DNA from: Ostreococcus lucimarinus
Lineage: Eukaryota
DNA: 64,000 nt
Reading direction: 5' to 3' (one strand)
NCBI GenBank assembly: GCA_000092065.1
Contig: CP000582.1
Shown: one piece after another, positions 21,155 through 42,291 of the stretch
How the letters are laid out: each line of letters starts with the position of its first letter
How positions within the stretch are numbered: the first letter of the stretch is position 1
The notes under the pieces: model-generated
Database searches by the model: none
What the model saw: only the letters and a program-made list of their open reading frames with translations
What the model was told of the DNA's origin: nothing
Made by a program: the position numbers and the translations under genes

Positions 21155-21165
21155 GAGTGAGAGAG

Positions 21166-21212
<47 letters not shown>
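21155..21212. repeat. (GA)n microsatellite, about 27 units, with a GAGAAAAA-containing lead-in
   Basis: Visible directly: gagtgagagagaaaaa(ga)n, then gggg. Confidence 0.95.
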
Positions 21213-21214
<2 letters not shown>

Positions 21215-22315: not shown

Positions 22316-22624
22316 GTCCACCACCGCCGCAGCGAGACTTTCGTTCGTTGGATACGTTCTGACGTATTGCGCGTTCGTCGGCGCACGAAAATCGCAGCGC
22401 GCGGTCCTTTTTTGCGGTACACTGACAGACATCACGACTGTTTTTTTGTACAATCTCTGCCGCTGCCGCTTCGGTAAACGCAAATATTTTAGCCTATCAA
22501 GCACACACCGATTGCTGAGTTGTACAAAAAGCTAAAATCGAGGAAATTCGATTGACCGGCGTTCCGACGGCGACGTAGGGCGCCTGTCGAAAGGCCGTAT
22601 CACATTTGGCATACTACTCAGAAC

Positions 22625-23994: not shown

Positions 23995-24097
23995 CGATCC
24001 AAGGAAGTTAAAAGAACGATGCGACGGGTCTGAAAATTAATCTCTCGTTGAATAGTTTCATTATAAACTCAAGATTGTAAATTTAATGTGATGCGTC

Positions 24098-25616
24098 TCA
24101 GTCCGTTTCGTAACCGAACACAGATGAAAAGACATCAATAACTCGAGAGCCTTCATCAATAGTCGCCATTGGATCCTTACGGAGCCTGTGACGCAGGCAG
24201 AGCGACACTACCGAATAAACGTCTTCGTCGGTCACTACCTTGGAACCTCGGAAGGCTGCAGCTGCACGTGATGCGCGAGTCGTCACGAGATCACCACGGA
24301 GGCCATCGACGTCAAGCTCAGCGCAGACTTGGGAAATTTTCAGTCGGATTTCCATGGGAACCTCAACCTCCGGTAACAAGGCGCGCGCCCGAGTCACCTG
24401 GTCTATGATTTCGTCCTGCTTTGCCTTGTATCCCGCGCGGAACGACTTCGGATCCGTGTCAAATGCAGTCCGCTCTTCGACAACCTTGACCCGCTCTTCT
24501 GGCAGTTTCACAGTCTTGATTTGTGCATGCATGCCGAAGCGATCTAAAAGCTGGGGTCGCAGTTCGCCTTCTTCTGGGTTACCGGAACCAATGAGGATGA
24601 AACGAGCCGGGTGACATATACTGATTCCCTCGCGCTCCACTGTATTCCAGCCCGACGCTGCCGAATCAAGCAAAACATCAACAAGGTGGTCGTCTAGTAA
24701 GTTGACTTCATCAACATACAGTATTCCGCGATTCGCCTTGGCGAGGAGACCAGGTTCGAAGGCTTTCGTCCCCTCAGTTAACGCTTTCTCGATATCGATC
24801 GTCCCGCATACGCGATCCTCAGTTGCACCCAAGGGTAAGTCAACCATATTGATAGGAACGAAGGAAGTCTCGAGCGGTTGCTTGGCCCGATATGCCGATA
24901 AAACGTCGGGAGACATCAAGTTCGGATCCGTAGGGCTACTCATAAACGGATCATCTTTCACGATTTCGATGTATGGAAGTAAATCAGTCAACGAACGGAC
25001 TGTCGTCGACTTCCCAGTCCCACGATCGCCCATCACCATGATGCCGCCGATATTCGGATCGATGATGTTCATCAGCGCTGCGAACTTCATCTCTTCTTGG
25101 CCAATGATAGCGCAGAAGGGATATACAGGTCTAGCGGTACTATCCTCCACCTCGGAATCGTTGGAAACTACGTCAAGAGTGAGTAAGTCAATATTCTATG
25201 CCGACACTACAGGGTCTCTTACCGGCTTTAGGGCGAAGTGTCTGCTGCACGCGGCAGCCACGCGTGCCTTGAATGTTCCTGAAAACAAATTGAGAAAAAT
25301 TTCGAAGATCAGTTCGAAACGGGGCGTACTTATATCCCCGGCTCCATCTACAGAGCGCTGTACCGTAGAAGAAAACCGTCAGTCGCCCGAGTTCTGTCGA
25401 TAAGGTTGCGAGCGATGTGTTCGCGTGTCCGCTTGTGCGAAAAGAACGCAATGGGAAAGCCTCACGCGTGACGATCTAACGAACAAAAAAATGAGGATGC
25501 TTGAGTGAAACAAATATCGCGTCAAACTCGCACGTGACGAGAAAACTTCGCGTGCAGGCACGTGTCTCACCGTTTACGTGTTGATGACTGTATGAAACAG
25601 CGGCGGACATCGACAT
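24098..25616 (-). CDS. CHLI: magnesium chelatase subunit I (ChlI), nuclear-encoded with N-terminal transit peptide; 3–4 exons
   Basis: Mature part reads RPVYPFCAIIGQEEMKFAALMNIIDPNIGGIMVMGDRGTGKSTTVRSLTDLLP.., a textbook ChlI AAA+ module, in a 350-codon exon. Upstream exons encode an S/T/R-rich presequence (MSMSAAVSYSHQH / ..RSFRTSGHANTSLATLS..QQTLRPKA / VSNDSEVEDSTARPVYPF). ATG at 25616..25614. Presequence exon boundaries are uncertain. Confidence 0.9.
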
Positions 25617-26101
25617 GTTGAACTCGCTCGTCTGTTTAAATAATATCCGAATAATTATTCACGATGGTACACGATCTAATCACCCGTGGGCACAACGTGT
25701 GCGCGTGCGTCAGTGCGGCAAGTACAAGTATCGAATGTGACGTGAGCTAAGCTGAGGAAGCGGATAACGATGAAAACATTCGGTTCTATATCATGGTGTA
25801 TTAATGATGTTTCATAAACGCGCACATACTTAACAGCGTGTATTGCATATATCAGTATCTCCACGGTTTATTGTGGGTCTGGCGCGTGCGTTGACGTCTT
25901 CGAGGAAACGACAGCTTTCGCTGAACTTGCAACGCGCGTCAAAACGCTCACGCGAATACTCAGCCACAGTTCCTTCGTCCGTCGTTTGACGCGACAGCTG
26001 TTTCTCAGGTTCAACATCCTGCACTTCTTGCATCAACTCAACAAGGTTGGCTGCATACTCGCCGAACTCTTCGCGACAGGATCCCCGAGTTATTTTTCAC
26101 A
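25617..26101. promoter_or_regulatory. 485-bp head-to-head intergenic region shared by CHLI (minus) and ClpP (plus); putative bidirectional promoter
   Basis: Inferred from divergent start codons at 25616 and 26102. No motif was verified. Confidence 0.35.
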
Positions 26102-26996
26102 ATGCAAGCTCGATCTTTATACCGTTTCAAGACGCAGCACTCTAGGTACGCTATAGGTGTAGTTTTCGTCGTTCGAGCATACGGTCGTGAGCGGTGCACC
26201 CCTTTTGTTGGCAAATTAAAGGCGGCACACGCGTGAAACCCTACAGGGGAAGTACTAACGGCTCTTTTTTGTTTTCGCTCCCAGTGGCGTTGGATCATCA
26301 TCTGCGCGCATAGATCGCTCAAAGCACCAAGGCTTACAGACTCGAGTTAAAGCAGGGCTTTATGTCAGCAACCAACAGGGCAAGGGTCCATCGCCTATTG
26401 TGCTGGAAAGGTTTCAAAGCGTTGCCAGCCAACTCATGTCGCAGCGTATTATTCGACTCGGCGGTGCAGTAGATGACGATAGCTGCAACTTAATCGTAGC
26501 TCAACTTCTTTGGTTAGATGCTGCAGATCCCACGAAAGACATTACACTGTACGTAAATTCACCTGGGGGCTCCGTTACAGCAGGAATGGCGGTGTTTGAT
26601 ACAATGCGACATATTCGTCCCAACGTTTCTACGGTTTGTGTGGGTCTTGCGGCATCTATGGGTGCGTTTCTTCTTGCTTCTGGTCATCCGGGCAAAAGAT
26701 ACAGCCTTCCGAACAGTAGGATCATGATTCACCAACCTCTTGGTGGTGCACAAGGTCAAGCCGCAGATATTGAGATACAAGCTAACGAAATCATGCATCA
26801 TAAGTCAACGCTGAACGGCTACCTCGCTGAATTTACCAAGAAACCACTTGAGACGGTGATGGAAGATACCGATCGAGACTTTTTCATGTCGGCTAAGGAA
26901 GCCGTTGAGTATGGCCTTATAGACGCTATCATTGAGCACCCCACAGACGTGGCTGTCAAGGCTTCGGGCATACCTATGTATGCGTCTGGACTGTAA
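26102..26996 (+). CDS. CLPP: ATP-dependent Clp protease proteolytic subunit ClpP, nuclear-encoded organellar precursor (2 exons)
   Basis: Exon 1 (26102..26145) reads [14 protein letters not shown]. Intron 26146..26284 runs GTACGC..TACTAAC..CCCAG. Exon 2 (26285..26996) reads ..[121 protein letters not shown].. The catalytic Ser is in AASMG; a catalytic-triad His is present; the Asp was not checked. 252 aa in total. Confidence 0.85.
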
Positions 26997-27497
26997 GACG
27001 ACTGCTTCGTCTCGTTTTCCATTGTAAAAGTGACTCTGGTTATAATGTATGAGTCGGCGTGTAGAAGAAAAGCGATTATCCGACGACACGTCATTTTTCA
27101 TGTTGTTCCAGCGAGAGGTAAAAATACATCGCACCAGAACGCACCTCGTCTATGTTGGACGTTCCTTAGCGACAATTTGTTATGAACACCAACCAACGAA
27201 TCCTCAGATTTGCAAACATCTCGCGGCATGCGACACGACAACCTCTACACTCAAGGTTTGCGTGGCAATCAGCCTCACTTGGGCTAGAGTTCCAGTCTCG
27301 AACGGTAAGGTTGGTGTACACTACGGCCGAAGCTTGGCGAGTTTTAGGGAGCTTCAGATAGGTCGTAGACTTCATGTGATGATTGTTTTGAAATTTAATC
27401 TTCTGTCAATATTAAAAGCCGTGAGAGAGGGACTCGACGGGCTCTTAAAGCTGCACATGGCGCTCGCTCATTGTCCGAGCTCATAAGGACTATCAGC

Positions 27498-27825
27498 TTA
27501 CAACGAGAGCCCACTGTCATCGTCCTTGCCACCAGCTACAATGGAAGCATCTTGCTTACCAGCGATAAAGTAGAGGCCAAAGATGGCGAGCGGAACGGTC
27601 GCCAAAATGATGCCCAAGGCGCCGTCGTTGATGCCGAGAGGCAAGCCAGTACCGTCACCGTTCAGTCGATCGTCAACCTACGGCGTTCAAGTTGAAGGAT
27701 AATACGTGTGAAAGGAATCATATCAATACTTACGATCGCGAGCGCCGGAAGTACATTAACCATAGAAGAGAGCGCAAAGGAGCCAGCAACTCGTTTACCC
27801 ATTTCTTGCGGTGCAGTCGCGCTCA
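27498..27825 (-). CDS. PSBW: photosystem II reaction-centre W protein (PsbW) precursor; at least 2 exons, with a possible further 5′ exon
   Basis: Exon at 27734..27825 reads MSATAPQEMGKRVAGSFALSSMVNVLPALAI, a thylakoid-transfer signal ending in the AxA motif. Intron 27678..27733 has donor GTAAGT. Exon at 27498..27677 reads VDDRLNGDGTGLPLGINDGALGIILATVPLAIFGLYFIAGKQDASIVAGGKDDDSGLSL*. This matches mature PsbW ([41 protein letters not shown]). A stromal-targeting exon probably lies upstream of 27825 (candidate in 27880..28106). Confidence 0.8.
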
Positions 27826-28685
27826 TAGTGACCACTGTGCGGCCAAGTCAGTATGGTAGATGTCAAAAAGTCCGCGCGAAGAAAAGTACGAAACACACAA
27901 CGTATGCAAATGGATATTTTTCGACGCACCTGATCGCTTGGTAGTGGCATTTTGCTTCTTGACTGTCGGTGGGAAAACGACTTGTCAGTTCTGGTTATAG
28001 CGCGCTTAACAACGCGATCGTATCTTTTCGCAGACAGCGCACACGTACCAGATCGTCGCTGCACGACGTTGCACGGCGTGGAAATCACAGACGAGATAGT
28101 AAACATGTTATTCGTGAACTTTTACACACGATGGCTTGCGCGGGTACGAAGTGGTGTCGTCGGCGATCACCAGCGTCGTATCGCGTACAGATATGCGATT
28201 ATGTTTATGAGTCTCTTTAATTTTTATTACCTAATAGCCTCATCAGTATATGAACCGTAACGGCTCTTTGTTGTTGCGAACGTACGCGTATATTGTACCG
28301 AATTTCTCATAGACGACCGATAGCTCCTGAGCTCTCAGATCTCGTCTAGATCGAGCGCTATCCTATGTTTGATCCTTAGACAAGCGTCGAGAACGGTGAA
28401 CATCACTGTACGCGTCGGCGCCTCCTGTCAAAGTGAAATCATGTTCACATTGAATACTCGAACTACATGCGTTGAACGAAGGTAAGATTGGTGCATCGCC
28501 CCTGGAAACCCAGCCTCTTTTTTGTACTCGATGTTCGTAGCGCGTGACGACGGAACTCACACTCGACTCGAAACCGCACGCGTGCGGTCATGCAATCCAG
28601 AAACGGCAAAATGGTTAGATCCCGAATTATTTTTAAACAACGATGAGGGAGATTTTTGGCGCAGTGTTTGCTTGCTGCCTTCGTG

Positions 28686-30071
28686 ATGCACGAAAAGACT
28701 AACGTTATCCTCCCCGAGAACAGCCTGAGCGCGAAGTTGCACGAACCTAAGCTGTCGCGTTCGCGCACGACGGCGCGTGTGACGCCACGAAATGTGGTCA
28801 CAGCGTCTGGTGCCCCTTTAACTGATCGGAAATTGCGTGTCGCTGTCATCGGTGGTGGTCCTGCCGGTGCTTGCGCCGCTGAAACTCTGGCGAAGGGTGG
28901 ATGCGAGACCTTCCTGATCGAGCGCAAGATGGACAACTGCAAGCCCTGTGGTGGCGCCATCCCGCTGTGCATGGTTGGTGAATTCGACTTGCCGGAAGAA
29001 ATCATCGACCGTAAGGTCACTAAAATGAAGATGATCTCGCCTTCGAACCGTGCCGTGGATGTCGGACAAACTCTGAACGACAAGGAGTACATCGGTATGT
29101 GCCGTCGAGAAGTCATGGATGACTTCCTGCGCAAACGCGCGAAGAGCCTAGGCGCGAACCTTGTCAACGGTCTTTTCATGAAAATCGAAGATCCCGGCCA
29201 AGGAAACGGCCCTATCATGGTCCAGTACAACGATTACGAAGAAGAAAGCAAGACTGGCGTTCCCAAAACGCTTGAGGTTGACGTCGTCATCGGCGCGGAT
29301 GGTGCCAACTCTCGCGTTGCCAAGTGCATCGACGCAGGTGAATATGACTACGCCATCGCCTTCCAGGAACGCATTAAGATTCCGGATGCAAAGATGGAGT
29401 ACTATAAAGACCTTGCTGAAATGTACGTAGGCGACGACGTGTCGCCAGATTTTTACGGTTGGGTTTTCCCGAAGTACGATCACGTTGCGGTTGGGACTGG
29501 TACGGTTGTGAACAAGACTGCCATTAAGCAATATCAGACTGCCATGCGCAACAGAGCCGAGGAAAAGTGCGAGGGTGGTAAAATTATCCGTGTGGAGGCG
29601 CACCCGATCCCGGAACATCCGAGACCGAACAGAGTGAAAGGTCGTGTCGCGTTGGTTGGAGATGCAGCAGGCTACGTCACGAAGTGCAGTGGCGAAGGTA
29701 TTTACTTCGCGGCCAAGTCAGGTCGTATGGCAGCCGAGGCCGTTGTCGAACAATCGATGAATGGAACGAAGGAAATTGGCGAGACCGATCTTCGTGTTTA
29801 CCTTGACAAGTGGGATCGCAAGTACTGGGCGACGTACAAGGTTCTTGACATTTTGCAGAAAGTCTTCTACCGCTCTAATCCGGCGCGTGAAGCCTTCGTT
29901 GAAATGTGCGCGGATGAGTACGTGCAGAAGATGACTTTCGATTCCTACCTGTACAAAACTGTTGTGCCGGGCAATCCGTTGGACGATGCGAAGCTCCTCG
30001 CCAATACTGTTGCCTCACTGATGCGCTCGAACGCTCTTCGCATCGCGTCAAAAAGTGGCATCGCCGCCTAA
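28686..30071 (+). CDS. CHLP: geranylgeranyl diphosphate reductase (ChlP), single exon with ~45-aa transit peptide
   Basis: RVAVIGGGPAGACAAETLAKGGCETFLIERKMDNCKPCGGAIPLCMVGEFDLP is the canonical ChlP FAD-binding N-terminus. Homology continues across the full length (..ALVGDAAGYVTKCSGEGIYFAAKSG..). First ATG in the ORF at 28686 (MHEKT..). Confidence 0.9.
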   Translation: MHEKTNVILPENSLSAKLHEPKLSRSRTTARVTPRNVVTASGAPLTDRKLRVAVIGGGPAGACAAETLAKGGCETFLIERKMDNCKPCGGAIPLCMVGEFDLPEEIIDRKVTKMKMISPSNRAVDVGQTLNDKEYIGMCRREVMDDFLRKRAKSLGANLVNGLFMKIEDPGQGNGPIMVQYNDYEEESKTGVPKTLEVDVVIGADGANSRVAKCIDAGEYDYAIAFQERIKIPDAKMEYYKDLAEMYVGDDVSPDFYGWVFPKYDHVAVGTGTVVNKTAIKQYQTAMRNRAEEKCEGGKIIRVEAHPIPEHPRPNRVKGRVALVGDAAGYVTKCSGEGIYFAAKSGRMAAEAVVEQSMNGTKEIGETDLRVYLDKWDRKYWATYKVLDILQKVFYRSNPAREAFVEMCADEYVQKMTFDSYLYKTVVPGNPLDDAKLLANTVASLMRSNALRIASKSGIAA

Positions 30072-30268
30072 GATGCGATCAGTTTAATTCTTTACGATCA
30101 ATTTCGAAGCAAATTAGTAGCGCTACTTTACAAAACAACTGTTATTGTTATCCACGATCTACGTAAGACACTGTTCGCCTCGCGATGCTTGATATAGGCA
30201 ACTAACACACACTGACGTGTTGCGCTTTCTTACACTCACACCCCACCGAATTGCCGTCAATCGTCTGC

Positions 30269-32104
30269 TCACCAAGCGAGAAGATTGATGAATACCGAAC
30301 CTTTCCAACCCTCTGGGTTGCGTACACCGTCCCGACACAGTTGCTTCACAGCTTTTAAACACAGTTCTTTGCTCGCAGTTGAGATGTCTCGATGTCCTTT
30401 CTCAAGCCGTCGAAGACTCAAGAGGGTGCTCAGACGAAAAACGGTTGAACTAGCCAGTTGCTTCAGGAACTCAACCCGATACTTCGTCTCACGCTCGTTC
30501 CTAGACTCGCATCTGTACATTAACCCAACGTGATTTTCGACGATAATACGGTCTACGAGGAACTCTCGCAACTGCTCTCGTACGTCATGACTGACTGAGT
30601 TCGGGTTGTCGTCTGCGAGCAGTTCGTAAATGGCACCGTGAAGCAGAAAAAGTGCACGCAGATAGGGTGCCGGCATACTCAGCCACTTGAATTGCTTGAT
30701 GCGAGTGCGTAGCAAACGAACAAATTCGTGCTTTGACTCTCCGTGTACATATGCACTGCGCATCGCTTTGCAGGCGAGTTGCACTGTAGAATCTGCACTT
30801 TTAACTTGCAAAGATTTCAACGTTGTCGCTATGGAAGCGAGTAGTTCAATCAACGGAATGCACTCTTGTAACGATTTATTTTGCTCGAACTCGAACCACT
30901 CCTTTTGTATCCATATGAGGAAGTCAGCGCACAAGATACTCGCTACTGGATTCTTGAGCACTACTTCTTCGGCAGTACCAGAAGCCAATTTAGAATGGAA
31001 TATATCTACGAAAAACAAACAAAGCTGGACATAATTTGTACATCGTATGGTATGCTCTACACTTGATATCATCATCTGTTTACTTCGTTTCAGATCGTCC
31101 CAAGCTGAGAATAAAAATTGGTTGACAACAGGAGCCGACAGGTTCGTCAATAAGCCGACCTGCCAAGGTTGGAGTTCTGATGTAGAAGATGTAGAAGGGA
31201 TCAAAATACCGCAGGCGCGCGACATATAGTGTGTTTCGATTGGATTTCCTCTAAGAAGCCTTTCAGACTCTGCGTATTCGCTATGCTTAACGTAAACACC
31301 ACTGAACCCCCCCCGCACAGCGCCCTTCACAGCCTTTGAAATGCCGAATTTACTCAACTTTCGCGACCATTGTGCAGATTTGGCGCTATGAGTTCCCATA
31401 TTCAGGTGTGTACTGGTATTGGAATCATTTTCATGAAAGCAGAGGATCAAAGCGAAGATTTCAACAAGAAGAGGAAGGTCATTGTTTATTGGAGAAACAC
31501 ATGCATCCTGAATTACTGCGGAAAGAACCTCCATAAACTGACACTTGAGTAGCAGTCGAAAAAGTTCATGGCGCACGTTACTGCTCTTAGAACCAACGAG
31601 ACTGTGCGAACGCGCTATGAGTAGTAAGTTCCGTACGAGCGTGAATGTTAACTGTAGAATTTTAGTCAATGTTTCGCCATTTTCCAGGTTGCCAGTTTCC
31701 AACTTCCCAAGTGCTTCAGAGACCAATAACATCAACTTGGGGAATATACAGGCGTGATCCAATAGGACACGGAGCGTGGAATTCAGAGCTTGATTTTGTG
31801 CTATAAAATTCGTACTTTCTTTTTCAGGTGGAAGTGTTAAGAAGACAAGAAGTTTCACCACAAGAAAGGACGTCGACAGCTCGCCACAGTGTGTTCCAAG
31901 AAGCGGCAATAAGTCTTTCCCCAGCACGTTCCACGCAATTAGCTGAAGGAAGACACCCCTTTCGCTAGAATCTTTTTGTAGGAAGCGTGTAATGTCCTGG
32001 AGCGATGCATCACATTCTGGATCTTTTCGGTATCCTCCCCGCGTGGTGCGAACACCGATCGTTGAGACCAAACTTAGCAGGTGCGCTTCACTGTACTTCG
32101 ACAT
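30269..32104 (-). CDS. Timeless/Tof1-family replication fork protection protein (N-terminal Timeless domain)
   Basis: Peptide CDASLQDITRFLQKDSSERGVFLQLIAWNVLGKDLLPLLGTHCGELSTSFLVVKLLVFLTLP aligns with the human TIMELESS N-terminus ([47 protein letters not shown]). ATG at 32104. Only ~610 aa before a stop, so it is unclear whether 3′ exons exist. The stop lies ~200 bp from the convergent CHLP stop. Confidence 0.75.
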   Translation of the reverse strand: MSKYSEAHLLSLVSTIGVRTTRGGYRKDPECDASLQDITRFLQKDSSERGVFLQLIAWNVLGKDLLPLLGTHCGELSTSFLVVKLLVFLTLPPEKESTNFIAQNQALNSTLRVLLDHACIFPKLMLLVSEALGKLETGNLENGETLTKILQLTFTLVRNLLLIARSHSLVGSKSSNVRHELFRLLLKCQFMEVLSAVIQDACVSPINNDLPLLVEIFALILCFHENDSNTSTHLNMGTHSAKSAQWSRKLSKFGISKAVKGAVRGGFSGVYVKHSEYAESERLLRGNPIETHYMSRACGILIPSTSSTSELQPWQVGLLTNLSAPVVNQFLFSAWDDLKRSKQMMISSVEHTIRCTNYVQLCLFFVDIFHSKLASGTAEEVVLKNPVASILCADFLIWIQKEWFEFEQNKSLQECIPLIELLASIATTLKSLQVKSADSTVQLACKAMRSAYVHGESKHEFVRLLRTRIKQFKWLSMPAPYLRALFLLHGAIYELLADDNPNSVSHDVREQLREFLVDRIIVENHVGLMYRCESRNERETKYRVEFLKQLASSTVFRLSTLLSLRRLEKGHRDISTASKELCLKAVKQLCRDGVRNPEGWKGSVFINLLAW

Positions 32105-32603
32105 ACGCCCGCTGATAGTACGGGCGTCGGTCTCAAACAATTCAATTTATTTATTGACGAGAAGAGGCGTACACCACGAGTGGGGCGCTACCTATGTCGA
32201 CACGCCGTGAGCACGACACAGTTTTGACAGTTCAATTCAAATTTTTGTCACCAGTTTGGCATTTTGAAAAAAGGTTTTTCCGGGTGTTCGGGGAGGGCAG
32301 TTATGTTATGAGCGGATGTTTTCACACGCCACCAGGTGAGTTTTGTGGAGCACATTTGTCGAGTTATGACTCAAGAATGACCCCGAGCTATGTACATTCA
32401 ATTCTCTTAGACTCCGCGCGTATGAATAAGCACGCACGACATCGACGCGACCTACAAACCCAAGGTTTCTCAAAACCCTGGGTGGTTCCAGTCCAACTGG
32501 AGGTCTACGGCGGAAGGGAGGCTGTGAAGACGCGTCAGTCGAATCAGACGAAAGTCAACACGTGCGAGCCGGTAACGATTGACAGGTCGAAAGCATCAAA
32601 GCG

Positions 32604-33893
32604 ATGTTGGCTACGAAGTATTCATTGACTGAGCATAGACGAATGCAGATCAGCCTCGGTGCGAGCAAGCGTTCTATACAGTGCACTGGAGTCCGTCGTG
32701 CGAGACAGAGGGGTATCGTAGCAGCGAATCCAAATCCTTCCTTCAGTTTGAAGACTTTGAAAGTAAATGTTGCAAAAGCTGTTGTAGATTTGGCTCCAGG
32801 AGAAGCGGGTTTGAGGCTTCTATCACGGGCTTTTCCTTCAAAGATTCGCGGTACCTTCGATGGTCTCTTATCTAGTTATAAAAGTCAGCTATTAGTGGCT
32901 TTAGGTGATGACGATCGAGCTGCCACTGCCGTCACGAGTATATTCAAAGACATGATTAAGGCTTACGCAGAGCAACTTCTTGGAGAGTCGTATACGTTCC
33001 CTTCTTTTCACCGAGCAATTCGCGAGCCTTTTGACTACTATCAGATGGCCAACGCATACATCGGCTCGTTGATCGACTTCGACCGATCAATCCTTCGGTA
33101 TTCATCAAGGTGGTCAAAGGTGCAACAACAGCTAGAAGCCGGTGAAAATGTCGTATTTTTGGGAAATCATCAGAGCGAGGGGGACGCTGCTTTTATCCCG
33201 CTCCTTACCGAAGTGTCCCACCCGGGCCTTGGCGAGCAAGTCATTTATGTCGCAGGCGGACGCGTTGTGAGTGATCTGCTCGCCAAACCTTTCAGCATGG
33301 GGAAAAATTTGTTGTGCGTTGTTTCAAAAAAGCACATGGACGAAGATGCGGCAAAAAAATCAGCACAAATGAAACAAAATCTCACCACACTGAAAGAAAT
33401 GCAATTGTTGTTAAACAAAGGTGGTGCCTTGATATGGATCGCACCTGCAGGTGGTCGGGATCGGCGCAAGCCAGATGGTACCTTAATTCCAGATGAATTT
33501 GATCCCCAAGCAGTTGAGATGATGCGTAAACTTGGGACAAAGAAAACGTCTGCGCTTACACATTTTTATCCTTTGGCTATGGCTACATACGATATAATGC
33601 CTCCCCCTGCCACTACAGAAAAGGAGCTTGGTGAAAAACGTGTTGTCAACTATACCGGAGTTGGCTTATCTTTGGGCGAGGAAATCGACGTTTCAGATGC
33701 AGGAGAGTGGCGAAAAGAAATAGCTGCTGGCGAGGACATGGACGAGGCGAAGCAACTTTCCACTTACATTTGGCGTCAAGTTCTATCAGAATACTTGGAA
33801 ATAGATGCCTGCAATGTTCCCGGGGGGGAGACTCTCCCTCTTCCTGCGGATAGCTTGAGACCGGTGAGGCCACCCTCTGTCCCAAAATTCTGA
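32604..33893 (+). CDS. ATS1: plastidial soluble glycerol-3-phosphate acyltransferase (ATS1/GPAT), single exon with transit peptide
   Basis: ATG at 32604. Acyltransferase block NVVFLGNHQSEGDAAFIPLL matches the plant ATS1 H(x)4D region (NVVLISNHQTEADPA). Further matches: ..LCVVSKKHMDEDAAKKSAQMKQNLTTLKEM..ALIWIAPAGGRDRRKPDG. Confidence 0.9.
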   Translation: MLATKYSLTEHRRMQISLGASKRSIQCTGVRRARQRGIVAANPNPSFSLKTLKVNVAKAVVDLAPGEAGLRLLSRAFPSKIRGTFDGLLSSYKSQLLVALGDDDRAATAVTSIFKDMIKAYAEQLLGESYTFPSFHRAIREPFDYYQMANAYIGSLIDFDRSILRYSSRWSKVQQQLEAGENVVFLGNHQSEGDAAFIPLLTEVSHPGLGEQVIYVAGGRVVSDLLAKPFSMGKNLLCVVSKKHMDEDAAKKSAQMKQNLTTLKEMQLLLNKGGALIWIAPAGGRDRRKPDGTLIPDEFDPQAVEMMRKLGTKKTSALTHFYPLAMATYDIMPPPATTEKELGEKRVVNYTGVGLSLGEEIDVSDAGEWRKEIAAGEDMDEAKQLSTYIWRQVLSEYLEIDACNVPGGETLPLPADSLRPVRPPSVPKF

Positions 33894-34021
33894 GCAAACT
33901 GCAGTTTTGACGACACAGTACATGATATGCAACTGAGAAGTACTTCTGTAGTCCTCGCCACGCACTCAACAATTGAGGTGCACATTATGTGATGTCATTT
34001 ATTATAAAATTCATCGATCTT

Positions 34022-34549
34022 TCACGTAGCTTCGCGTAATTTTACATGTGTAGCTGAAAGTGCTTGTTCAAAAGCGCTCAGCAGCGAATATAAAGTGAAG
34101 TCCTGTTTCGCCAAATCCACTTCACCCGCCGGAGTCACGAGAAACAAATTACCCAATGTCGATTCGCAAGCCCTCAGCTCTTCTTCATAAGACCGAGCGA
34201 CGCTTTTAAGATAGTCTAGCGGACTTTCATGACATGTTACAGGCACCTTCAAGCTTTGGGATCCCTGTGTTGATAGATGTGAGCGGATGCTCTCGAGGGT
34301 TGCCCATGCTCGTTGAGACCCCTTGCTCTGATGTGCACACCTTTCTACCTGAAGTTGGAGCGCCGTTTCTTTCCTACCTATACATACTTTCGCCGCCGAC
34401 AAAAGACGTCGCGTCAGGTCAAGGGAGTGTTCTAGTTTGGGCACATCAGACGCTGTCGCTCTCCACGAGCACGGATCGAACAAGTTCGCTTGCGCGCTCG
34501 TTCGAGATAATACATCATCCACTTGAGAAACGTAAACCGCGTGTAGCAT
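34022..34549 (-). CDS. hypothetical protein (175 aa, no recognisable domain)
   Basis: Uninterrupted ORF with a real ATG at 34549. Lies between ATS1 and the tRNA pair. No homology recognised by eye. Confidence 0.35.
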   Translation of the reverse strand: MLHAVYVSQVDDVLSRTSAQANLFDPCSWRATASDVPKLEHSLDLTRRLLSAAKVCIGRKETALQLQVERCAHQSKGSQRAWATLESIRSHLSTQGSQSLKVPVTCHESPLDYLKSVARSYEEELRACESTLGNLFLVTPAGEVDLAKQDFTLYSLLSAFEQALSATHVKLREAT

Positions 34550-34585
34550 CGCTAGGAGTGTGTAGTAAGGAAGAGTAGAACAGCG

Positions 34586-34650
34586 GACCCGCGCGGGCTA
34601 CAGCGTCTGTAGAGAGCCCGTTCCGAACGGAACGGGCCTTTGTTTTTTCT
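34586..34650 (+). other. three consecutive GC-rich hairpins followed by T-run (CCCGCGCGGG; CTACAG-cgt-CTGTAG; GCCCGTTCCG-aa-CGGAACGGGC; TTTGTTTTTT)
   Basis: Seen directly. On the plus strand it looks like the 3′ end of a Pol III or small structured RNA, or like an intrinsic terminator. On the minus strand it is the 5′ leader, 37–100 nt upstream of the 34549 start codon. Confidence 0.5.
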
Positions 34651-34750
34651 CGTGCTGTCGCGCCGGGTTTCCATAGTTCCTTGACGCATTGCGTTTGTAT
34701 GTGTACAAATCTTGTACTAAGTACTGAAAAAGTAAAAAGTCAAAAAAAGT

Positions 34751-34830
34751 TGACACCGGTGGGATTTGAACCCACGCTCTTTCGAACCAGGACCTGAACC
34801 TGGCGCCTTAGACCACTCGGCCACAGTGTC
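34751..34830 (-). tRNA. tRNA-Leu (anticodon CAG), 80 nt with long variable arm
   Basis: Minus-strand sequence GACACTGTGGCCGAGTGGTCTAAGGCGCCAGGTTCAGGTCCTGGTTCGAAAGAGCGTGGGTTCAAATCCCACCGGTGTCA resembles eukaryotic Leu-CAG tRNAs. Anticodon loop is TTCAGGT. T7 terminator follows (plus 34742..34748). Confidence 0.85.
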
Positions 34831-34919
34831 TTTTCGCCACAATGGCGCGGATCGTACAATAAATAGCGCACCGTGCGCGCGATTCATATCTATAGCAGGG
34901 GGTTTTTCGGCGAACAAGC

Positions 34920-34992
34920 GCTCAATTAACTCAGTGGATAGAGTGTCAGCTTCCTAAGCTGAGGGTCGCGGGTTCGATCCCCGTATTGAGTG
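34920..34992 (+). tRNA. tRNA-Arg (anticodon CCT)
   Basis: GCTCAATTAACTCAGTGGATAGAGTGTCAGCTTCCTAAGCTGAGGGTCGCGGGTTCGATCCCCGTATTGAGTG folds as a cloverleaf. D-arm is ACTC/GAGT, anticodon stem TCAGC/GCTGA with loop TTCCTAA, T-arm GCGGG-TTCGATC-CCCGT. There is a G1:T72 wobble. A T-rich tract lies downstream (34999..35031). Confidence 0.75.
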
Positions 34993-35104
34993 ACATCTCT
35001 TTCTTTTTTTTTCTTTTTTTTCTTTTTCGTGAAAAATGAAATGGCGACGACTGCGTGGCTGCACTTTCGTCTGGTGCGCTATATTTTGTTATTTATTTCG
35101 CTAT

Positions 35105-35270
35105 TTATCAGTATGTATTACTTTCCAGGCTCTAATGTATGGGGTCTCGATCGCCACGCGCGCGTTGTGGCGTCGTCGCGAGTTATTAGCACTTCGACGG
35201 CGCGCACGTATAAGGCCCGGGAAAGTGATAATGATTAACCTGGGTTTATAAGTCGCGATGGATGCCGTGC
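35105..35270 (+). mobile_element. MITE-like element copy A (Tc1/mariner-type CAGT terminal repeats; 3′ end degenerate), with AAGTCGCGATGGATGCCGTG tail
   Basis: 35107..35210 is ~95% identical to the reverse complement of 61870..62016, apart from an 11-bp indel. Starts TATCAGTATGTATTACTTTCC. The tail ATAAGTCGCGATGGATGCCGTG recurs at 38598..38622. Confidence 0.55.
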
Positions 35271-35794
35271 GTGTTTGTCTGATGCATATTCATACGCGCA
35301 ATAGTCTATATATGTATGCTAGGTCGTGTAGTGTAGATAGACGTTAGCACCACTACAATACAGGATTGTGTTCATCTCCGTTCATCTCCAGTGTCCACTA
35401 CCAGCACACATTACACAAGTGTATACGACCCCCATGTAGGAGCGCCATAATACGAGGAAAGTTCCGTATCTCGCGCGATCGCTCGGCCGCGATCTCGAGC
35501 AAAACCGTATCTATCGTCAGTTTCGACCTCAACATGATCCGAACCGTGAACGTGTCGCTCGGCGCGCGCGCCATCCTCGAAGGAAAGGTGAGTGTAACGT
35601 GTTCATCGAAAATTTCGTGACTCGTCGTACTTGCGCTTTGTTACACAGCGTTTTACATAGCTCGCACGACACTAACGACGATTCTTTCGCTTGGTTGCCG
35701 CAGTCTTTGCGACATGAGAGACGCTCGCGAGCGCCCGTGAGCGTGACGAATAATTCGCGGTAGGTAGCAAAAAAGATTATTTTCGTCGAGTACC

Positions 35795-36395
35795 ATGTTC
35801 TTCAATCGAACGTCTGGCCTGTTATCACCACCGCGTAAGCGAAACGTTCGAAACTGACCGCGATCACGCGTGCTTTCTTTTCTTTCACAGAAGACGTTCC
35901 GTCGTTTTGGCCTCTTCCGATAAAGTCCAAATCATTAAACCGATCAATGGTGATCCGTTCATTGGTATGCTTGAAACGCCGGTGACTTCATCGCCGGACG
36001 TGGCGAACTTTCTTTCCAATTTGCCTGCTTATCGCACCGGCGTAGCCCCTCTCCTGAGAGGAGTTGAAGTTGGCCTCGCTCACGGCTTCTTCCTTACCGG
36101 ACCTTTCATCAAGCTTGGCCCGCTTCGCTCGACCGATGCGGCTGAGTTGGCGGGTTGCCTGTCTGGTGCTGGCCTTGTGCTTATTTTGACGGCTTGCTTG
36201 AGCATCTATGGAGCGACTGCGTTCCAAAGGGAGGAAGTGGTTGGCTTGAAAACTTTAAGTGGTAGAGCCATCGCTAAAGATCCTTTACAATCATCTGACG
36301 GCTGGGCCTCTTTCACTTCTGGCTGGCTTGTCGGAGGTTTGTCTGGCGTCGCCTGGTCGTATGTTTTGACTCAAGTGTTACCGTACTACTCGTGA
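35795..36395 (+). CDS. PSAL: photosystem I subunit XI (PsaL) precursor; 2 exons (35795..35835, 35891..36395) with an alternative 5′ model
   Basis: Mature part reads [66 protein letters not shown], near-identical to plant PsaL. Exon 1 reads [13 protein letters not shown] + R. The 55-nt intron runs GTAAGC..CTGAC..TTCACAG. The alternative model uses upstream exons 35533..35586 (MIRTVNVSLGARAILEGK, GTGAGT donor) and 35704..35759, joining the same acceptor at 35890. Confidence 0.85.
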
Positions 36396-37384
36396 GCCTG
36401 TTGCGCGTAGAGTGTTTTTCAAAGATGCCACAAGCACATGCGCACGTACTTATAGTCATCATCCTACTAGACGTGTGATAAAATGACATGTAACCGCCAC
36501 GCTTTGAACGAACGTATGATAAAATCGCCAACAAGAATACACTGAGAGTTGCGAACTATGTGAGCAGCAACTATCTGCGAGTTCATCTGCGAGTTCACGC
36601 TAAAGTGAAGCAACAACGACAAAGTAAATTAAGAAAGCTGAGAGCACTCGCTCGCACCCATGGGGCAAGACACACTCACAATCGAAAGATACTTATGCAA
36701 GATAGAAAGCCGAAAAAAAGTATGATCTTTGTAGTGCATGTAAATTTTTGCCTTTTGCTGTTTTCCGTGCAAGCGCACCTCAGCAACAGGAGCCCATAAA
36801 GCATAAACTGAGAATAGCAGGAAGAAAAGTCTACACGGTATATGAGATGAAGCCATCAAAAGAGAAGAGCAAAGTCGCCCACCCGATTACTAAAGATGCC
36901 CCAACCGTTGGAAGAATGAATACGTGTCTCGTCCTCAGCAAAATGCAACTGATGACAACCAGTCCCCACAAGGCAAATACACCACTCCTGGGAAATCAGT
37001 TGATACTCAAAAAAACTAGGTGTACTTTTCATGTCTCGTACCTTCCGTGATAAATAACTAAAACATGCGGTAAGCTGGCTTTACCATCGCCGTGTAGGAT
37101 AACGAGCGTAGCTAAAAACACTAACACGTAGCTCTCCAATCTGTTCACCACCGATTGAAGATAAGGTGATTTCATGTGGCCTAGTAATTGATAGTAATAT
37201 CTTCGGATAGTATGAACAAACGCTCGTCCCTGTGTGGCGCCTTTGGTCAACTTAGTTACGTAAAATGCCGTTCGAATCACAACCGACAGCTTGTTTGATA
37301 ATTTTGACTTCGACGAACAATATCACGACCAAGATCGTGAAGCAGAACCGCGAGAGTTTAACGGAGATTTTGTTGTTACAAGGT

Positions 37385-38288
37385 TTACTCATCATTTTTG
37401 AAATATTCTAGCAAAGGAAAACGATCAAACTTGTACTTTTTGTGAACGGCACTCGAGCTCACAAAATTTGGAATTGGGTCCTCCACCACTGTCGAATACC
37501 AAGCAATGAAAAGATGAATCACCGCGTCGTTATCAGAATCGTGTCGTGTGTAATATTGCATCGTGCTCCCTCCAATCACAATCTGTCGGATTCAGAACAA
37601 CTGTCCGTTGGGGATCGTGACAGCTTTTTAACAACTCAAAGTTTCTCGCAGTGCCTATGACCTTTTTTATGAAACCAACCAAATCTACATTGAATGGGTC
37701 GGAGCTCATGCAACTGATAAGTAGCGCACACCTAATTATGTAGAAATCTATGCTATCTTCTCCAAACTTATAGCTACTTAAACTGTAGATCTTCGGCAAA
37801 AGTTCTGTGGTTAGAGTGCAAAAGTTGACTGTTTCAAGAAGTATCAGTTCAAGTTCACCCATCTCGTCGGAGAATTCAACTAGACTTAAGCGACATGGTG
37901 AAAGGTAGAAGGGTAGCGGAGTTGGGTCTTTTGAAACCATTTCAGTGAGTGCGACGTACATTTCGTATAATTTTGTGCAGCAGATAGTTTCGTGCCCGAT
38001 AGCCTTGCTTGCAACGAGAACAGAAGACGCTGTGACTAGTAAAGGACAGTGGGTTACCCATCGTTCGTCGTGTAATCTCCAGAAAAAAGCTGCAGCTGTT
38101 CCAAATAATAGAACTTTTGAGTCAAAGTGCAAGTGAAGGGGCACTTTGCAGTCTCGTTGTTAGTACACGTTCAGCAAAAGTTTTGAATGACACTCACTTT
38201 CTTCTTCCAGCAACAAGGAAAGAAGCTTACACAGACATAACCGTCGTGTAAACCGTAGCTCTTCTGATGTCGAAGGTCCTCCCAACAT
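37385..38288 (-). CDS. cyclin (cyclin-box fold, C/H/L-like), 3 exons
   Basis: Exon 1 (38288..~38199) reads MLGGPSTSEELRFTRRLCLCKLLSLLLEEE, with donor GTGAGT. The 203-codon ORF reads MPLHLHFDSKVLLFGTAAAFFWRLHDERWVTHCPLLVTASSVLVASKAIGHE..GELELILLETVNFC.., fitting the cyclin-box pattern (A..YF.RF....clfLASKvEE ; mE..iL..L.F). The last exon follows a ~91-nt intron and reads LVEDPIPNFVSSSAVHKKYKFDRFPLLEYFKNDE*. Confidence 0.6.
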
Positions 38289-38597
38289 TTTCTTCTTCGA
38301 AAACTTTTCTTGGAAAGGAAAACGACACACGAATCACGCCCGCACGATATTGATGATTACTGTAGTTCGGACCATGGGCGATTGTGTATTCGAACTAAGT
38401 GACAGTCGCCGCCGCTTACGTGCGGTGAAGTCAATTGGTAGACGGATGAGTACAGTGGATTCGATTCCTTGTTCGCATGCACGCTTTTATCTTACGCATC
38501 GCTCGACGTCGATGCGGCTTTCAGCAGGCAAGTAAGCAACGACGTGGTCCGCGAACCGCCGTGAACATTGATGCGGGGATGTATTTAGGCATAAGTC

Positions 38598-38643
38598 GCG
38601 ATGGATGCCGTGTTTTAGGGTTTAGGATTTAGTGCTTGTCTGG
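38598..38643. repeat. fragment of the MITE tail (GGCATAAGTCGCGATGGATGCCGTG) directly followed by telomere-like TTTAGGG repeats (TTTTAGGGTTTAGGATTTAG)
   Basis: Direct match to 35246..35269. TTTAGGG is the plant/green-algal telomere unit, here about 2.5 interstitial copies. Confidence 0.5.
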
Positions 38644-38977
38644 TAGGTTATGATCACGTACATGATACGGCCGAAGAGTGATTATATATTGCATTGTACA
38701 AGTACATTAGCTAGCTAGTACTAGCTCTAGTACCTTGAGTATCTTGAGCAACTACAGTGGGGCTGAAAGTGGAACAAGAAACCGGTCGTTTGTTACCCGT
38801 GAATGGTCTTTTCTTTGCACACATGCGCGTGGAGAGCAGAGCTACCTCGCTTCATTCCCACTTCGCTCAATTCACGCGCGAATCGTTCGCGTGCCTGCTC
38901 GCCAGTATTTGTCTTAGGGGCGCGCCCGCTCGTTCAACGCTACGGCCACAGTCACAAATATCTTCCAAGGTCACGAG

Positions 38978-39790
38978 ATGAACATTTTTCGGTTCGGTGA
39001 GTGGCGTTGGCGTCGTCACTTGAGACCATCTTCCTGTTTTTCGCCGTTTCTTTTTTCCATTCCAATCATGTAGCGAGAATAACATCTTTGTTCGTTGAAA
39101 CAGCCGGTGACATGACGCACCTGTGTAGCATAGTCGTAAGTTGAACGCAATTGAGTTGTATACCTTGACGGACGACTCACTCGATCTCCTTAGGTTCTTC
39201 TGTTGAAAATAGAGGCGACGAAATCGTGTGCTGGAGTTTCGTTGAGGACTCAGGAACTATACGCCGTCGTTTTCGTGAGTAGGTACTTGGATTTGTTTTT
39301 CACTTTCATCTCAGTGTACAACACTGTTATGAAAGTCTTCTTTATTACCAGCAGCTTCTGTATAATATGGTACATGCGGCATCATAGGATAGTATCACAG
39401 ACGTATGATCGTGAACAGGACACATTTCGTGTCGCATTTCTCGTTGTACCGTGCATTTTCCTTGCACTGCTGGTCAACCACGAATTCTCCATGGTGGAAG
39501 TGTTGTGGACTTTTTCAATTTACTTGGAATCGGTCGCGATCTTACCGCAGCTCATCTTGCTGCAGCGGACATTTAATGTTGATACACTGACCAGCAACTA
39601 TGTCTTCTTGTTGGGCGCATATCGCGCCTTGTACATATTAAACTGGCTGTATCGGTATTTTACAGAGCCGGGATATTCACAGTGGATAGTCTGGAGCAGT
39701 GGAACTTTGCAAACTGCGATTTATTGCGACTTTTTCTACTACTATGTCGTGAGTTGGCGAAAAAATGAACGCCTGTCGCTACCTAGTTGA
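38978..39790 (+). CDS. ERD2: ER lumen protein-retaining receptor (KDEL receptor, ERD2), 3 exons
   Basis: Exons 38978..38996 (MNIFRF+g), 39104..39135 (AGDMTHLCSIV) and 39194..39790 (VLLLKIEATKSCAGVSLRTQELYAVVFVSRYLDLFFTFISVYNTVMK..SIYLESVAILPQLILLQRT..YRALYILNWLYRYFTE..). Closely parallels the human KDELR N-terminus ([37 protein letters not shown]..). Introns are 107 and 58 nt (GTGAGT, GTAAGT). Confidence 0.9.
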
Positions 39791-40951
39791 CGCTTGTTGT
39801 GATCGTTTGTCGAAACAGCGTGAGATATCATGACACTGTTGAAAATATATAAGAAAGATGTCGGAAATAATTTTACGTAATTTTCTAACTCTGCGAAAAG
39901 GACCTGATTCGTTCATCCGCTGTGCGAATCCGATGATCGCACCGATCACTCTCTCGACTTTGAGCATAGCCACCCGAAGTGGATGGATGCATCGCCCACT
40001 TTCTCTGTGCATTGGTTCTCCTAGACCGTTGAAGAGCCGTATTTATTTAATTAATCAAATGTAATCAAATGTTTCACGCGAACTTCTCAAAATGGAGATG
40101 AAAGCGACTCGTGCGAATGATTCGTAGTGGCTATTCCAAGGCCATACTGGCCCATGGTATTCCTTGCCGACAATCAACTAACGGTGGTCACGGCAATTTC
40201 GCTATAGCCGATTCTTGTATTGCATGAATAAGGTTGTATTAAATTTAATTTAAGTGATCTGAGCACACTCAATACTCGCCTAGTTTTACCAACAACAGAA
40301 ATAGCACTCTTCGAGCTATACGCCGCACGACTTCACCACACATTGAAAAATTTGTCATACGTGTAACTAAACTTGGTGAACATTCAGTAGCACAATTAAC
40401 AAATTAATTTAATTAATTCATGAACTCCTGCTTGCTTGCGCGAAGTACATCATTGGTCGCTTAGCGCAAGCAGTCGCTCGCGCGCGCGAAGACATTTGAG
40501 CTTGCAATGGGTGAAGAACGACTATGGAACGTCGGGCGCTCCTTTTACTAATATTTTTTCTCTCAACTGAAATTATTTCAAAATATCAACCGAGTTTGAG
40601 TAAAATGAACATCTTTCACTCCGTTGCCCTTGAACAAGTTTTACGAAAATAGCCATTGATTGTGAGAGGATGCCGCACAAATATCGAACGTGATACATGC
40701 CTCGCACGGATAGTCTGAGTTTGCTTACTATAAAACTACCAAATAAAATAAAAAAACAAGTAATAATTAAAATAGTGAAAAATAGTTTCGCTCGTTCGTT
40801 CTTGTTTGTTACACACACACACGGACAGACACGCACACATCTCAGATACATAAATTGTGGGTAGAAAAATCTTAGGGATACATAACAAGAATACTACGAA
40901 CATTCTAGGGTTAAGTTGTTCAATTTCAACTTGAACGACCGACACTGTGCT

Positions 40952-42291
40952 TCAGTCGCATTCTTGTGTCTCAGTCACAAGGGCGGCGAGGTCTCGGATG
41001 ATATCAAACGTAGCTTCGGGGCGTCCCAGAGCCCGTGCTCTGGAGGACATTGCGAGAAGTTCGGCATTATTCTCAGGAGCTAGCCATTCGGCAACTATTT
41101 GAGCGATCGTACGCGGGTTCTCACTGTATGCTCCAACTTTATTGTCAGTCACAAAGGGAATATTGCCCTCCTCTTGGCAAGGAATGCAGCCGTTCAAGAC
41201 AATAGGAACCCCACAGATCATAGCTTCAGCGATCGTTCCCGGGCCCGCTTTTGAGATAACGCAGTCACAAGCAGACATATACTCAGCCATATTATGAACA
41301 AATCCCTTCACCACCATTTTCAGTGGCCACACCTTTGACTGCAAGAAATCACTTAGTCTCAAATTGCGACCGCACACCACGATGACTTGGTGTGTGCTCC
41401 TTAATGTTTGTGCTAAAGCTTCCGCAGTTTCTTGAAGCTTACCCATACCTTCTCCACCACCGACGAGCATAACTGTTGGGGCGTCTGTGTCGAGTGCCAA
41501 TTTCGTTCGAAGTTCATGTTTAGAAAGTTGCCTACGTGCACTGAACGAGGGTCGGATAGGAAGACCATGGCACGCGATTTGTTCAGACTTCAACCCGAGT
41601 CGCATAGCCTGAGCAGCCACAAGATTAGTGGCCACGAAACACCTATCAACTGAACGATGGAACCATGTCGCGTGACAGCGTGTGAGGTCAGTTACAACAG
41701 TGGCAAAAGGCACTCTGGATATCAAAGACTGCTTGTGCATCTGTTGTAAGACACGCATCGGTACGTGTTGCATCAAAGGGTGAACGCTGACGATCAGATG
41801 CGGGTCGATTTCTTTAAATGCCCGCGCAAAGTGCTTTGATACAATCACGGTGTATCCCTAGGATGCAAATGTTAGCGCAATAGAAAGAGAAAAGCATTTA
41901 TTTCATCACCTTGAACATGATTTCGTGCAGGAGACGGGGCTCTGAGCAGCGGAAGTTTAACCTCCACAGCCAAGGATTTTTCACGAGAAAAAAGTAACTA
42001 TTTGGCATTTTAGAAAACGGCCAAGGGGAATTACTACTCCACAGATCGACAATGTGTACAGAAAATTCGTCCCCTGTTTTCGAAAAGTTGTGGCCGTGAG
42101 ACGGTTGTCATCAAACTTTAGGCAACATGATTACCGTATATGAGCTCAAAGCAATCTTTGAGAGCCTGAGCACTTGCCCTGTGTCCACCACCAGTATCAC
42201 TCATCAGACACATAACCCGCCGGCCACTCCTGTGGCCGATGAAGTCAGACGGGGAGCGCCCACCGACGTCGACGTTGGAGCAAGTTTTCAT
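40952..42291 (-). CDS. MGD1: monogalactosyldiacylglycerol synthase (MGD1-type), at least 4 exons; transit-peptide exon may lie further upstream
   Basis: Peptides ..RRVMCLMSDTGGGHRASAQALKDCFELIY / GDEFSVHIVDLWSSNSPWPFSKMPNSYFFLVKNPWLWRLNFRCSEPRLLHEIMFK / GYTVIVSKHFARAFKEIDPHLIVSVHPLMQHVPMRVL..VVTDLTRCHATWFHRSVDRCFVATNLVAAQAMRLGL..VMLVGGGEGMG..VVCGRN..VKGFVHNMAEYMSACDCVISKAGPGTIAEAMICGVPIVLN.. track plant MGD1 block by block. ATG at 42291 (MKTCSNV..), immediately after an in-frame stop, or after a CTTCATAG acceptor. Confidence 0.9.

Follow-up and report, generated by a model that had tools for sequence, protein, structure and literature searches.

A plastid-gene-rich 18-kb block of Ostreococcus lucimarinus as a probable ordinary stretch of the low-GC BOC1 region on the big outlier chromosome

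The window analysed here is a stretch of 64,000 nucleotides from the nuclear genome of Ostreococcus lucimarinus (contig CP000582.1), in which positions 24098-42291 hold seven genes for plastid functions (CHLI, ClpP, PsbW, CHLP, ATS1, PsaL and MGD1). This 18-kb block is part of BOC1, the sub-region of low guanine-plus-cytosine content (low GC) on the "big outlier chromosome" (chromosome 2) of this alga. The explanation favoured, with a probability of roughly 0.7, is that the block is an ordinary BOC1 stretch whose plastid density reflects a regional bias to highly expressed genes, together with rearrangement in a region that genes rarely leave. Since the block lies within a known low-GC, highly expressed region, the dense run appears for the most part to follow unremarkably from a feature already described, and the analysis gave no evidence of an 18-kb domain dedicated to photosynthesis.

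The ATS1 product matches XP_001416149.1 of O. lucimarinus CCE9901 at every residue, and the spliced CHLI product (397 aa) is likewise an exact match to XP_001416388.1 of the same strain. The GC content of the window is 45.9%, with every 2-kb bin within 43-52%. The published figures are 60% for the O. lucimarinus genome (PMC3491373 Table 1) and 47% for its BOC1, which covers ~364 kb of chromosome 2 (PMC3491373 Table S2) with a span of 345,000-709,200. Eight of the 10 introns mapped with a spliced contig (six in V-ATPase subunit d and two in CHLI) measure 42-54 bp and so match the small BOC1 introns of 40-65 bp (PMC3491373). At least eight of the 29 BOC1 core genes of the Mamiellales were recognised in the window by Pfam and homology against the published list (PMC3491373 Table S3), namely V-ATPase d, CHLI, Timeless, monogalactosyldiacylglycerol (MGDG) synthase, RLP24, BOP1, an ALG2-like GT4 and RNA polymerase subunit 2. 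A similar setting was seen for CHLI in relatives. In Micromonas commoda it lies at 1.20-1.23 Mb of chromosome 1, within the BOC1 of that species (263,000-1,817,000), where GC is 46% as against 66.5% elsewhere, and in Bathycoccus it sits in a stretch of 41% GC. Low GC, small introns, core genes and a gene set kept together while its order is shuffled among species all agree with BOC1. A nucleomorph or other organelle-derived genome was considered and ruled out by the 46% GC, by proteins identical to nuclear ones of O. lucimarinus and by the nuclear-type genes MCM3, HDAC, BOP1 and tubulin. Bathycoccus, whose genome has low GC throughout, was weighed as the source on account of the GC value and set aside, since its CHLI is only 88% identical and the exact protein matches are to O. 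lucimarinus.

A low-GC region on the big outlier chromosome of the Mamiellales was reportedly described by Derelle in 2006. Photosynthesis is over-represented among its genes, which are also expressed at a higher level (Moreau et al., 2012; PMC3491373), and the gene set stays together across the Mamiellales though collinearity is lost (PMC3491373). BOC1 is also a candidate mating-type locus with suppressed recombination, and O. lucimarinus CCE9901 has been classed as MT- (Benites et al., 2021; PMC8557840). A 2026 preprint (10.1101/2025.04.21.649811) found it to be hypomethylated and to resemble a topologically associating domain (TAD), with RNA-seq coverage 1.86-fold higher in O. lucimarinus. 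Clustering of this kind had been thought to be rarely described for nuclear genomes, which is not so for this region, where Moreau et al. (PMC3491373) already report the over-representation of photosynthesis. With the genome published in 2007 and the regional enrichment in 2012, the run adds no new kind of feature. The published BOC1 descriptions (Moreau et al., 2012; Benites et al., 2021) give no separate mention to the specific run CHLI-ClpP-PsbW-CHLP-x-ATS1-x-PsaL-...-MGD1.

Under the favoured explanation, the genes of BOC1 would remain a common set throughout the Mamiellales, with rearrangements internal to the region changing their order. This set would be rich in highly expressed housekeeping genes, those of photosynthesis included, and a density of seven in 11-13 genes could come from the regional composition and the chance outcome of shuffling. 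The higher share of plastid genes would then be due to the bias of BOC1 toward highly expressed genes. Each block gene would have its own promoter, with no mechanism acting on the 18 kb as a unit required, and local co-regulation is probably absent from the block. For O. tauri, no link of chromosomal position to diel transcription was reported (Monnier et al., 2010; PMC2850359), and its nitrogen-assimilation cluster is likewise not co-regulated (PMC2850359).

All seven plastid-function genes that the original prediction had placed in the block were recovered, with Pfam, Protein Data Bank (PDB) and homologue matches in agreement. The predicted total of 13 protein genes fared less well: 11 are recognisable, and 13 would be reached only if two unannotated gaps hold genes. 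The small open reading frames (ORFs) in the gaps at 36.4-37.5, 38.1-39.2 and 39.8-40.9 kb gave no Pfam match. The features of the block are as follows.

24098..25611, minus strand: CHLI, Mg-chelatase subunit I, 397 aa; Pfam Mg_chelatase and AAA_lid_2; BOC1 core gene (Table S3).
25612..26101, no strand: CHLI/ClpP divergent intergenic region; start codons placed from the alignment of contig L059.
26102..26996, plus strand: ClpP, chloroplast-type proteolytic subunit, 251 aa; Pfam CLP_protease, E 4e-79; one intron at ~26146-26282.
27501..28106, minus strand: PsbW; mature exon 27501-27677, ending ...SGLSL and a stop; putative transit-peptide exon from the ATG at 28106; six-frame reading.
28686..30071, plus strand: CHLP, geranylgeranyl reductase, single exon; Pfam GGR_cat and FAD_binding_3.
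30269..32140, minus strand: Timeless homologue, not plastid; Pfam TIMELESS; BOC1 core gene (Table S3).
32604..33893, plus strand: ATS1, plastid-type soluble glycerol-3-phosphate acyltransferase; best PDB match 8ia1 'GPAT, chloroplastic', E 2e-77.
34022..34549, minus strand: ORF175; no Pfam match; adjoins ATS1, convergently, in every low-GC relative.
34751..34994: tRNA-Leu(CAG) on the minus strand and tRNA-Arg(CCT) on the plus strand; ARAGORN.
35907..36395, plus strand: PsaL, mature part; Pfam PsaL, E 7e-58.
37533..38144, minus strand: ORF203; kept in L010 and L044/45.
39203..39790, plus strand: KDEL (endoplasmic reticulum lumen protein retaining) receptor, not plastid; Pfam ER_lumen_recept.
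40952..42291, minus strand: MGD1, MGDG synthase, several exons; Pfam; PDB 4wyi 'MGD1 chloroplastic', E 5e-87; BOC1 core gene (Table S3).

Alignment of spliced transcript contigs (L059 and L060) placed three introns in CHLI, at about 25169-25222, 25279-25325 and 25359-25570. The head-to-head arrangement of CHLI and ClpP, given earlier as 485 bp, was confirmed with divergent ATGs about 490-491 bp apart in the L059 alignment. Being divergent with less than 1 kb between their starts, the two genes have the layout of a bidirectional-promoter pair. This divergent pair is kept in L011 and L047/48 and is lacking in L005 and Bathycoccus, where PsbW follows CHLI. Among solved structures, ClpP is closest to 7eko_B, from the chloroplast Clp core of Chlamydomonas (326 bits, with bacterial ClpP at ~240); a mitochondrial paralogue was ruled out on this ground, and the gene is taken as the plastid paralogue. 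PsbW is 83% identical to a Bathycoccus gene carrying PF07123 (PsbW), and identity to the PsbW genes of L058, L005 and L047 ranges over 83-98%. CHLP shares 86% identity with the Micromonas geranylgeranyl reductase, and the N-terminal exons of MGD1 reach an ATG at 42291. No Pfam match was obtained for ORF203 even at E<=0.1, so that its earlier naming as a cyclin finds no support. Two enzymes, lysophosphatidic acid acyltransferase and phosphatidic acid phosphatase, act between the ATS1 and MGD1 steps, and because they lie between them the description of ATS1 and MGD1 as consecutive steps of galactolipid synthesis was wrong.

It was also observed that a single intron-free contig (L059; Logan SRR28326253) runs across ClpP, the divergent spacer, CHLI and V-ATPase d (window 22547-27243). 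It suggests overlapping or read-through transcripts over three genes, or an assembly that chained transcripts with overlapping untranslated regions.

Chance was estimated from simulated random gene orders with assumed plastid fractions rather than from a labelled real annotation. The nominal binomial P for seven in 13 genes runs from 1e-4 (10% plastid genes) to 1.3e-3 (15%). Random ordering of 7,600 genes is expected to yield 0.75-9.6 windows of seven in 13 at 10-15% plastid genes, and at least one such window appeared in 26%, 69% and 97% of the simulated genomes at 10, 12.5 and 15%, respectively. When window sizes of 6-20 genes are allowed, the chance of such a run rises to 47-100%. If only a BOC1 of 200-250 genes is considered, such a run has a probability of 0.03-0.10 with plastid genes at 12.5-15% and of 0.32-0.38 with 20%. 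The statement that this density is unlikely by chance therefore fails genome-wide, the probability of at least one such run being 0.26-0.97 at 10-15% plastid genes. The block is locally dense, yet its non-randomness is not demonstrable.

For the synteny survey, ATS1 served as the anchor in metagenome contigs and CHLP and CHLI in reference genomes, and homologues of all window genes were then located; the loci carry L numbers here, L011 being the same organism as the window. The proposal of a conserved photosynthesis neighbourhood was borne out in part, for a portion of the genus. In L010 (ATS1 98% and Timeless 90% identical) the block is collinear, save for a 4.6-kb insertion between Timeless and ATS1. 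In L047/L048 (46% GC) all ten genes from CHLI to MGD1 are kept in order and orientation, with identities to the window of ~50% for Timeless and ATS1 and 96% for PsaL, and an inversion breakpoint follows immediately after MGD1. The block is, however, broken in four other cases. In O. tauri RCC4221 (chromosome 2, 508-530 kb, 48% GC) the order is eIF3c, PsbX, cyclin, zf-U1, panB, CHLP and a flavin adenine dinucleotide (FAD) monooxygenase. In L005, CHLI and PsbW lie tail to tail and are followed, after 8 kb that contain U3 small nucleolar ribonucleoprotein 6 (snoRNP-6) and a subunit of RNA polymerase, by CHLP and the FAD monooxygenase. L052 reads BOP1, CAF1, HDAC, ATS1, ORF175, PsaL, YchF and HPT, and L042-44 reads RNA polymerase I subunit 2, ATS1, ORF175 and PsaL.

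In Micromonas the proposal did not hold, since CHLP and ATS1 have unrelated neighbours there. None of the other block genes was found within 10 kb of any high-GC (55-72%) ATS1 locus, nor within 10 kb of the CHLP loci of M. commoda and Micromonas-like genomes. The order in Bathycoccus is PsbP, PsbX, x, CHLI, PsbW, and its CHLI is only 88% identical to that of the window. On chromosome 1 of M. commoda (L057:11816-12426), CHLI is convergent with a different chloroplast Clp paralogue, whose best match is 7eko_N and which is only 32% identical to the ClpP of the window. The sole trio kept in every low-GC lineage sampled is ATS1-ORF175-PsaL (window 32604-36395; L040-L055), with ATS1 identity going down to 44-58%. 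The conserved stretches carry non-plastid genes (Timeless, KDEL receptor, ORF175) as much as plastid ones, and because unrelated genes are kept alongside, the synteny resembles ordinary microsynteny. The same BOC1 gene pool is reshuffled among lineages, with plastid genes often ending as neighbours.

Several observations were made on these loci in passing. The insertion in L010 (5420-10000) replaces the 0.46-kb Timeless-ATS1 spacer (window ~32140-32604) with 4.6 kb and three genes, a GT29 sialyltransferase-like gene, a CTP_transf_3 and RraA fusion and a SIS and CBS gene; judged by these domains, it looks like a sugar-nucleotide cassette of the 3-deoxy-D-manno-octulosonic acid (KDO) or sialic acid type. 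A stretch of 81 bp at the position of the window's tRNA-Leu is 96% identical between L052 and L047. The FAD-dependent monooxygenase of ~510 aa lies directly downstream of CHLP in L005 (11600-13150) and O. tauri (L061:11721-13247) and not in the window; NCBIfam gave only sub-threshold matches for it, to aromatic hydroxylases. When L005 (ENA k141_650471) was compared with window positions 24098-30126, CHLP was 96.5% identical at the DNA level and CHLI and PsbW only 76-82% identical, with extra introns in CHLI and a different gene order. An O. lucimarinus-like alga with the opposite mating-type haplotype would be expected to show such a pattern; a chimeric metagenome contig might also give it.

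A number of points weigh against the explanation favoured here. Ten genes remain collinear in L047/L048 despite ~50% identity in Timeless and ATS1, which indicates that some stretches persist for long. Plastid genes adjoin CHLI or CHLP in every genus examined, and this could exceed regional enrichment. The block is denser than its flanks in the window, where two to three of 25 genes are plastid genes (Fisher P 0.001-0.009, with post hoc boundaries). Plastid genes account for only four of 29 entries on the published BOC1 core list itself (PMC3491373 Table S3), and Gene Ontology analyses done later on the BOC1 of O. tauri and of Bathycoccus did not bring out photosynthesis.

In one rival view, the block would be the remnant of an older and larger plastid-gene neighbourhood, trapped in an ancestral mating-type region (a 'constrained ancestral location') and eroded lineage by lineage through inversions. 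CHLI and MGDG synthase lie within BOC1 in all Mamiellales, the CHLI-PsbW tail-to-tail pair is common to Bathycoccus and L005, PSF2 is found within a few kb of CHLI in Bathycoccus and the window alike, and at least five diverged low-GC lineages retain ATS1-ORF175-PsaL. In Micromonas, however, CHLP and ATS1 have unrelated neighbours and sit in high-GC DNA outside BOC1, and the core genes of BOC1 have dispersed orthologues in Chlamydomonas, Volvox and Chlorella (PMC3491373). Judged by gene orders within the Mamiellales, such an origin is considered unlikely.

A dedicated, co-regulated photosynthesis chromatin domain of ~18 kb, in which shared chromatin or enhancers drive light-dependent expression and selection keeps the seven genes linked, is very improbable. 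The high local density, the mere ~491 bp between the divergent CHLI and ClpP and the collinearity in L010 and L047/L048 would agree with it, as would the loops and TAD-like structure of BOC1 in O. tauri (10.1101/2025.04.21.649811). A TAD-like domain has been described, but it is BOC1 itself (~364 kb), and thus of another scale and without specificity for photosynthesis. Against the proposal stand the disruption of the block in O. tauri RCC4221, L005, L052 and L042-44, the three-gene sugar-nucleotide cassette between Timeless and ATS1 in L010 in spite of a 98% identical ATS1, and the unrelated genes, four to six in number, and pair of tRNAs interspersed among members that belong to four different processes. 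The O. tauri arrays, in which chromosomal position showed no link to diel transcription and the nitrogen-assimilation cluster no co-regulation (PMC2850359), point the same way.

Equally hard to credit is an adaptive linkage, by which plastid genes would be co-transmitted with a uniparentally inherited plastid via mating type, or would have been relocated to the permissive, highly transcribed BOC1 compartment, which would raise their expression. It draws on the status of BOC1 as a candidate mating-type locus, on the 1.6-3.8-fold elevated expression of genes in BOC1 (PMC3491373; 10.1101/2025.04.21.649811), on the plastid genes adjoining CHLI or CHLP in all four sampled genomes, and on Moreau et al., who explicitly leave 'adaptive gene relocation' open (PMC3491373). 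Sex and plastid inheritance have, however, never been observed in Ostreococcus, and by our own count the sampled BOC1 loci contain only ~18-24% plastid genes once the anchor genes are excluded. Moreover, algae without a big outlier chromosome also express their orthologues of BOC1 genes at high levels (PMC3491373), so that high expression is a property of the genes themselves. It is quite improbable that the non-recombining mating-type region retains or recruits plastid genes for a reason, be it such co-transmission or the use of an insulated, hyperactive BOC1 as a platform for expressing photosynthesis genes, with the block and ATS1-ORF175-PsaL as the best-preserved pieces.

Beyond the block, the window holds the BOC1 core genes used as context markers and two further plastid-type genes, listed below.

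1527..3273, plus strand: HPT-like UbiA prenyltransferase, multi-exon; tblastn with the L052 homologue.
22547..23994, plus strand: V-ATPase subunit d; six introns of 42-54 bp; BOC1 core gene (Table S3); context marker.
51409-51933, minus strand: RLP24; Pfam; BOC1 core gene (Table S3); context marker.
52113-53972, plus strand: BOP1; Pfam; BOC1 core gene (Table S3); context marker.
62513..63140, plus strand: PsbP-domain protein; Pfam PsbP, E 3e-5 on concatenated ORFs.

The HPT-like prenyltransferase predicted near 1.5 kb was reached through its L052 homologue, an intronless gene that clears the NCBIfam NF009525 (homogentisate phytyltransferase) cut-off and aligns to window 1779-3273; no UbiA domain was detected directly in the multi-exon gene of the window itself. 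The PsbP-domain protein expected near 62 kb was likewise located, its PsbP domain being found at 62.5-63.1 kb on the plus strand. A GT4 gene at 54-57 kb, which also occurs near CHLI in Bathycoccus, was considered as plastid SQD2, a candidate dropped for ALG2-like in line with the BOC1 core list.

Other observations concern the upstream part of the window. A LacZ-type GH2 beta-galactosidase of 1093 aa at 10181-13462 (minus strand) is intronless and has all five bacterial-type domains; it may possibly derive from horizontal transfer, candidates for which are reported to be 1.6 times more numerous in BOC1 than on average. For an intronless ORF of 567 aa at 17091-18794 (plus strand), the sole match was a weak N-terminal one to the P2X receptor family (E 0.015). 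The GINS subunit PSF2 at 21161-21412 (plus strand) lies a few kb from CHLI, as it does in the Bathycoccus BOC1 (L058:3572-4371), and a GA-rich microsatellite upstream of it, at ~21.1 kb, translates as (ER)n.

Should selection lie behind the clustering, the block would be one of the rare examples of eukaryotic nuclear gene order based on function, and would connect the biology of the plastid with a sex-linked region near the base of the green lineage. For now, the analysis mainly re-finds a published property of BOC1. Its practical value lies in an annotated 18-kb test case, with the 491-bp divergent promoter of CHLI and ClpP and the invariant trio ATS1-ORF175-PsaL, which bears on the question of Moreau et al. 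whether BOC1 clustering comes from adaptive relocation or constrained ancestry.

Compared with known systems, the block does not look like a functional cluster in the usual sense. Its plastid genes are spread over chlorophyll and phytol synthesis (CHLI, CHLP), photosystem II (PsbW), photosystem I (PsaL), lipids (ATS1, MGD1) and proteolysis (ClpP) rather than over one pathway, and it is kept as a collinear unit only in L010 and L047/48. Plant biosynthetic (operon-like) clusters also link non-homologous genes with related roles, but theirs are consecutive steps of one specialised pathway and tightly co-expressed, whereas the block has non-consecutive steps with unrelated genes between them. For Arabidopsis, Alexeyenko et al. 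in 2006 (Trends Genet) reportedly described a statistical excess of genes for organelle proteins, chloroplast and mitochondrial, lying side by side in the nuclear genome. That clustering is reportedly a weak genome-wide tendency over larger distances, with no tie to a non-recombining low-GC compartment. The nitrogen-assimilation cluster of Ostreococcus (~19 kb, chromosome 10; PMC2850359) is similar in size and belongs to the same genus with its very compact genome, but it serves one pathway on a normal chromosome, while the block combines four processes and unrelated genes in an outlier region. The likeness is to BOC1 as published (Moreau et al., 2012, PMC3491373; Benites et al., 2021, PMC8557840), with the same low GC, small introns, core genes and shuffled order, and the same over-representation of highly expressed housekeeping and photosynthesis genes, there described for the whole region.

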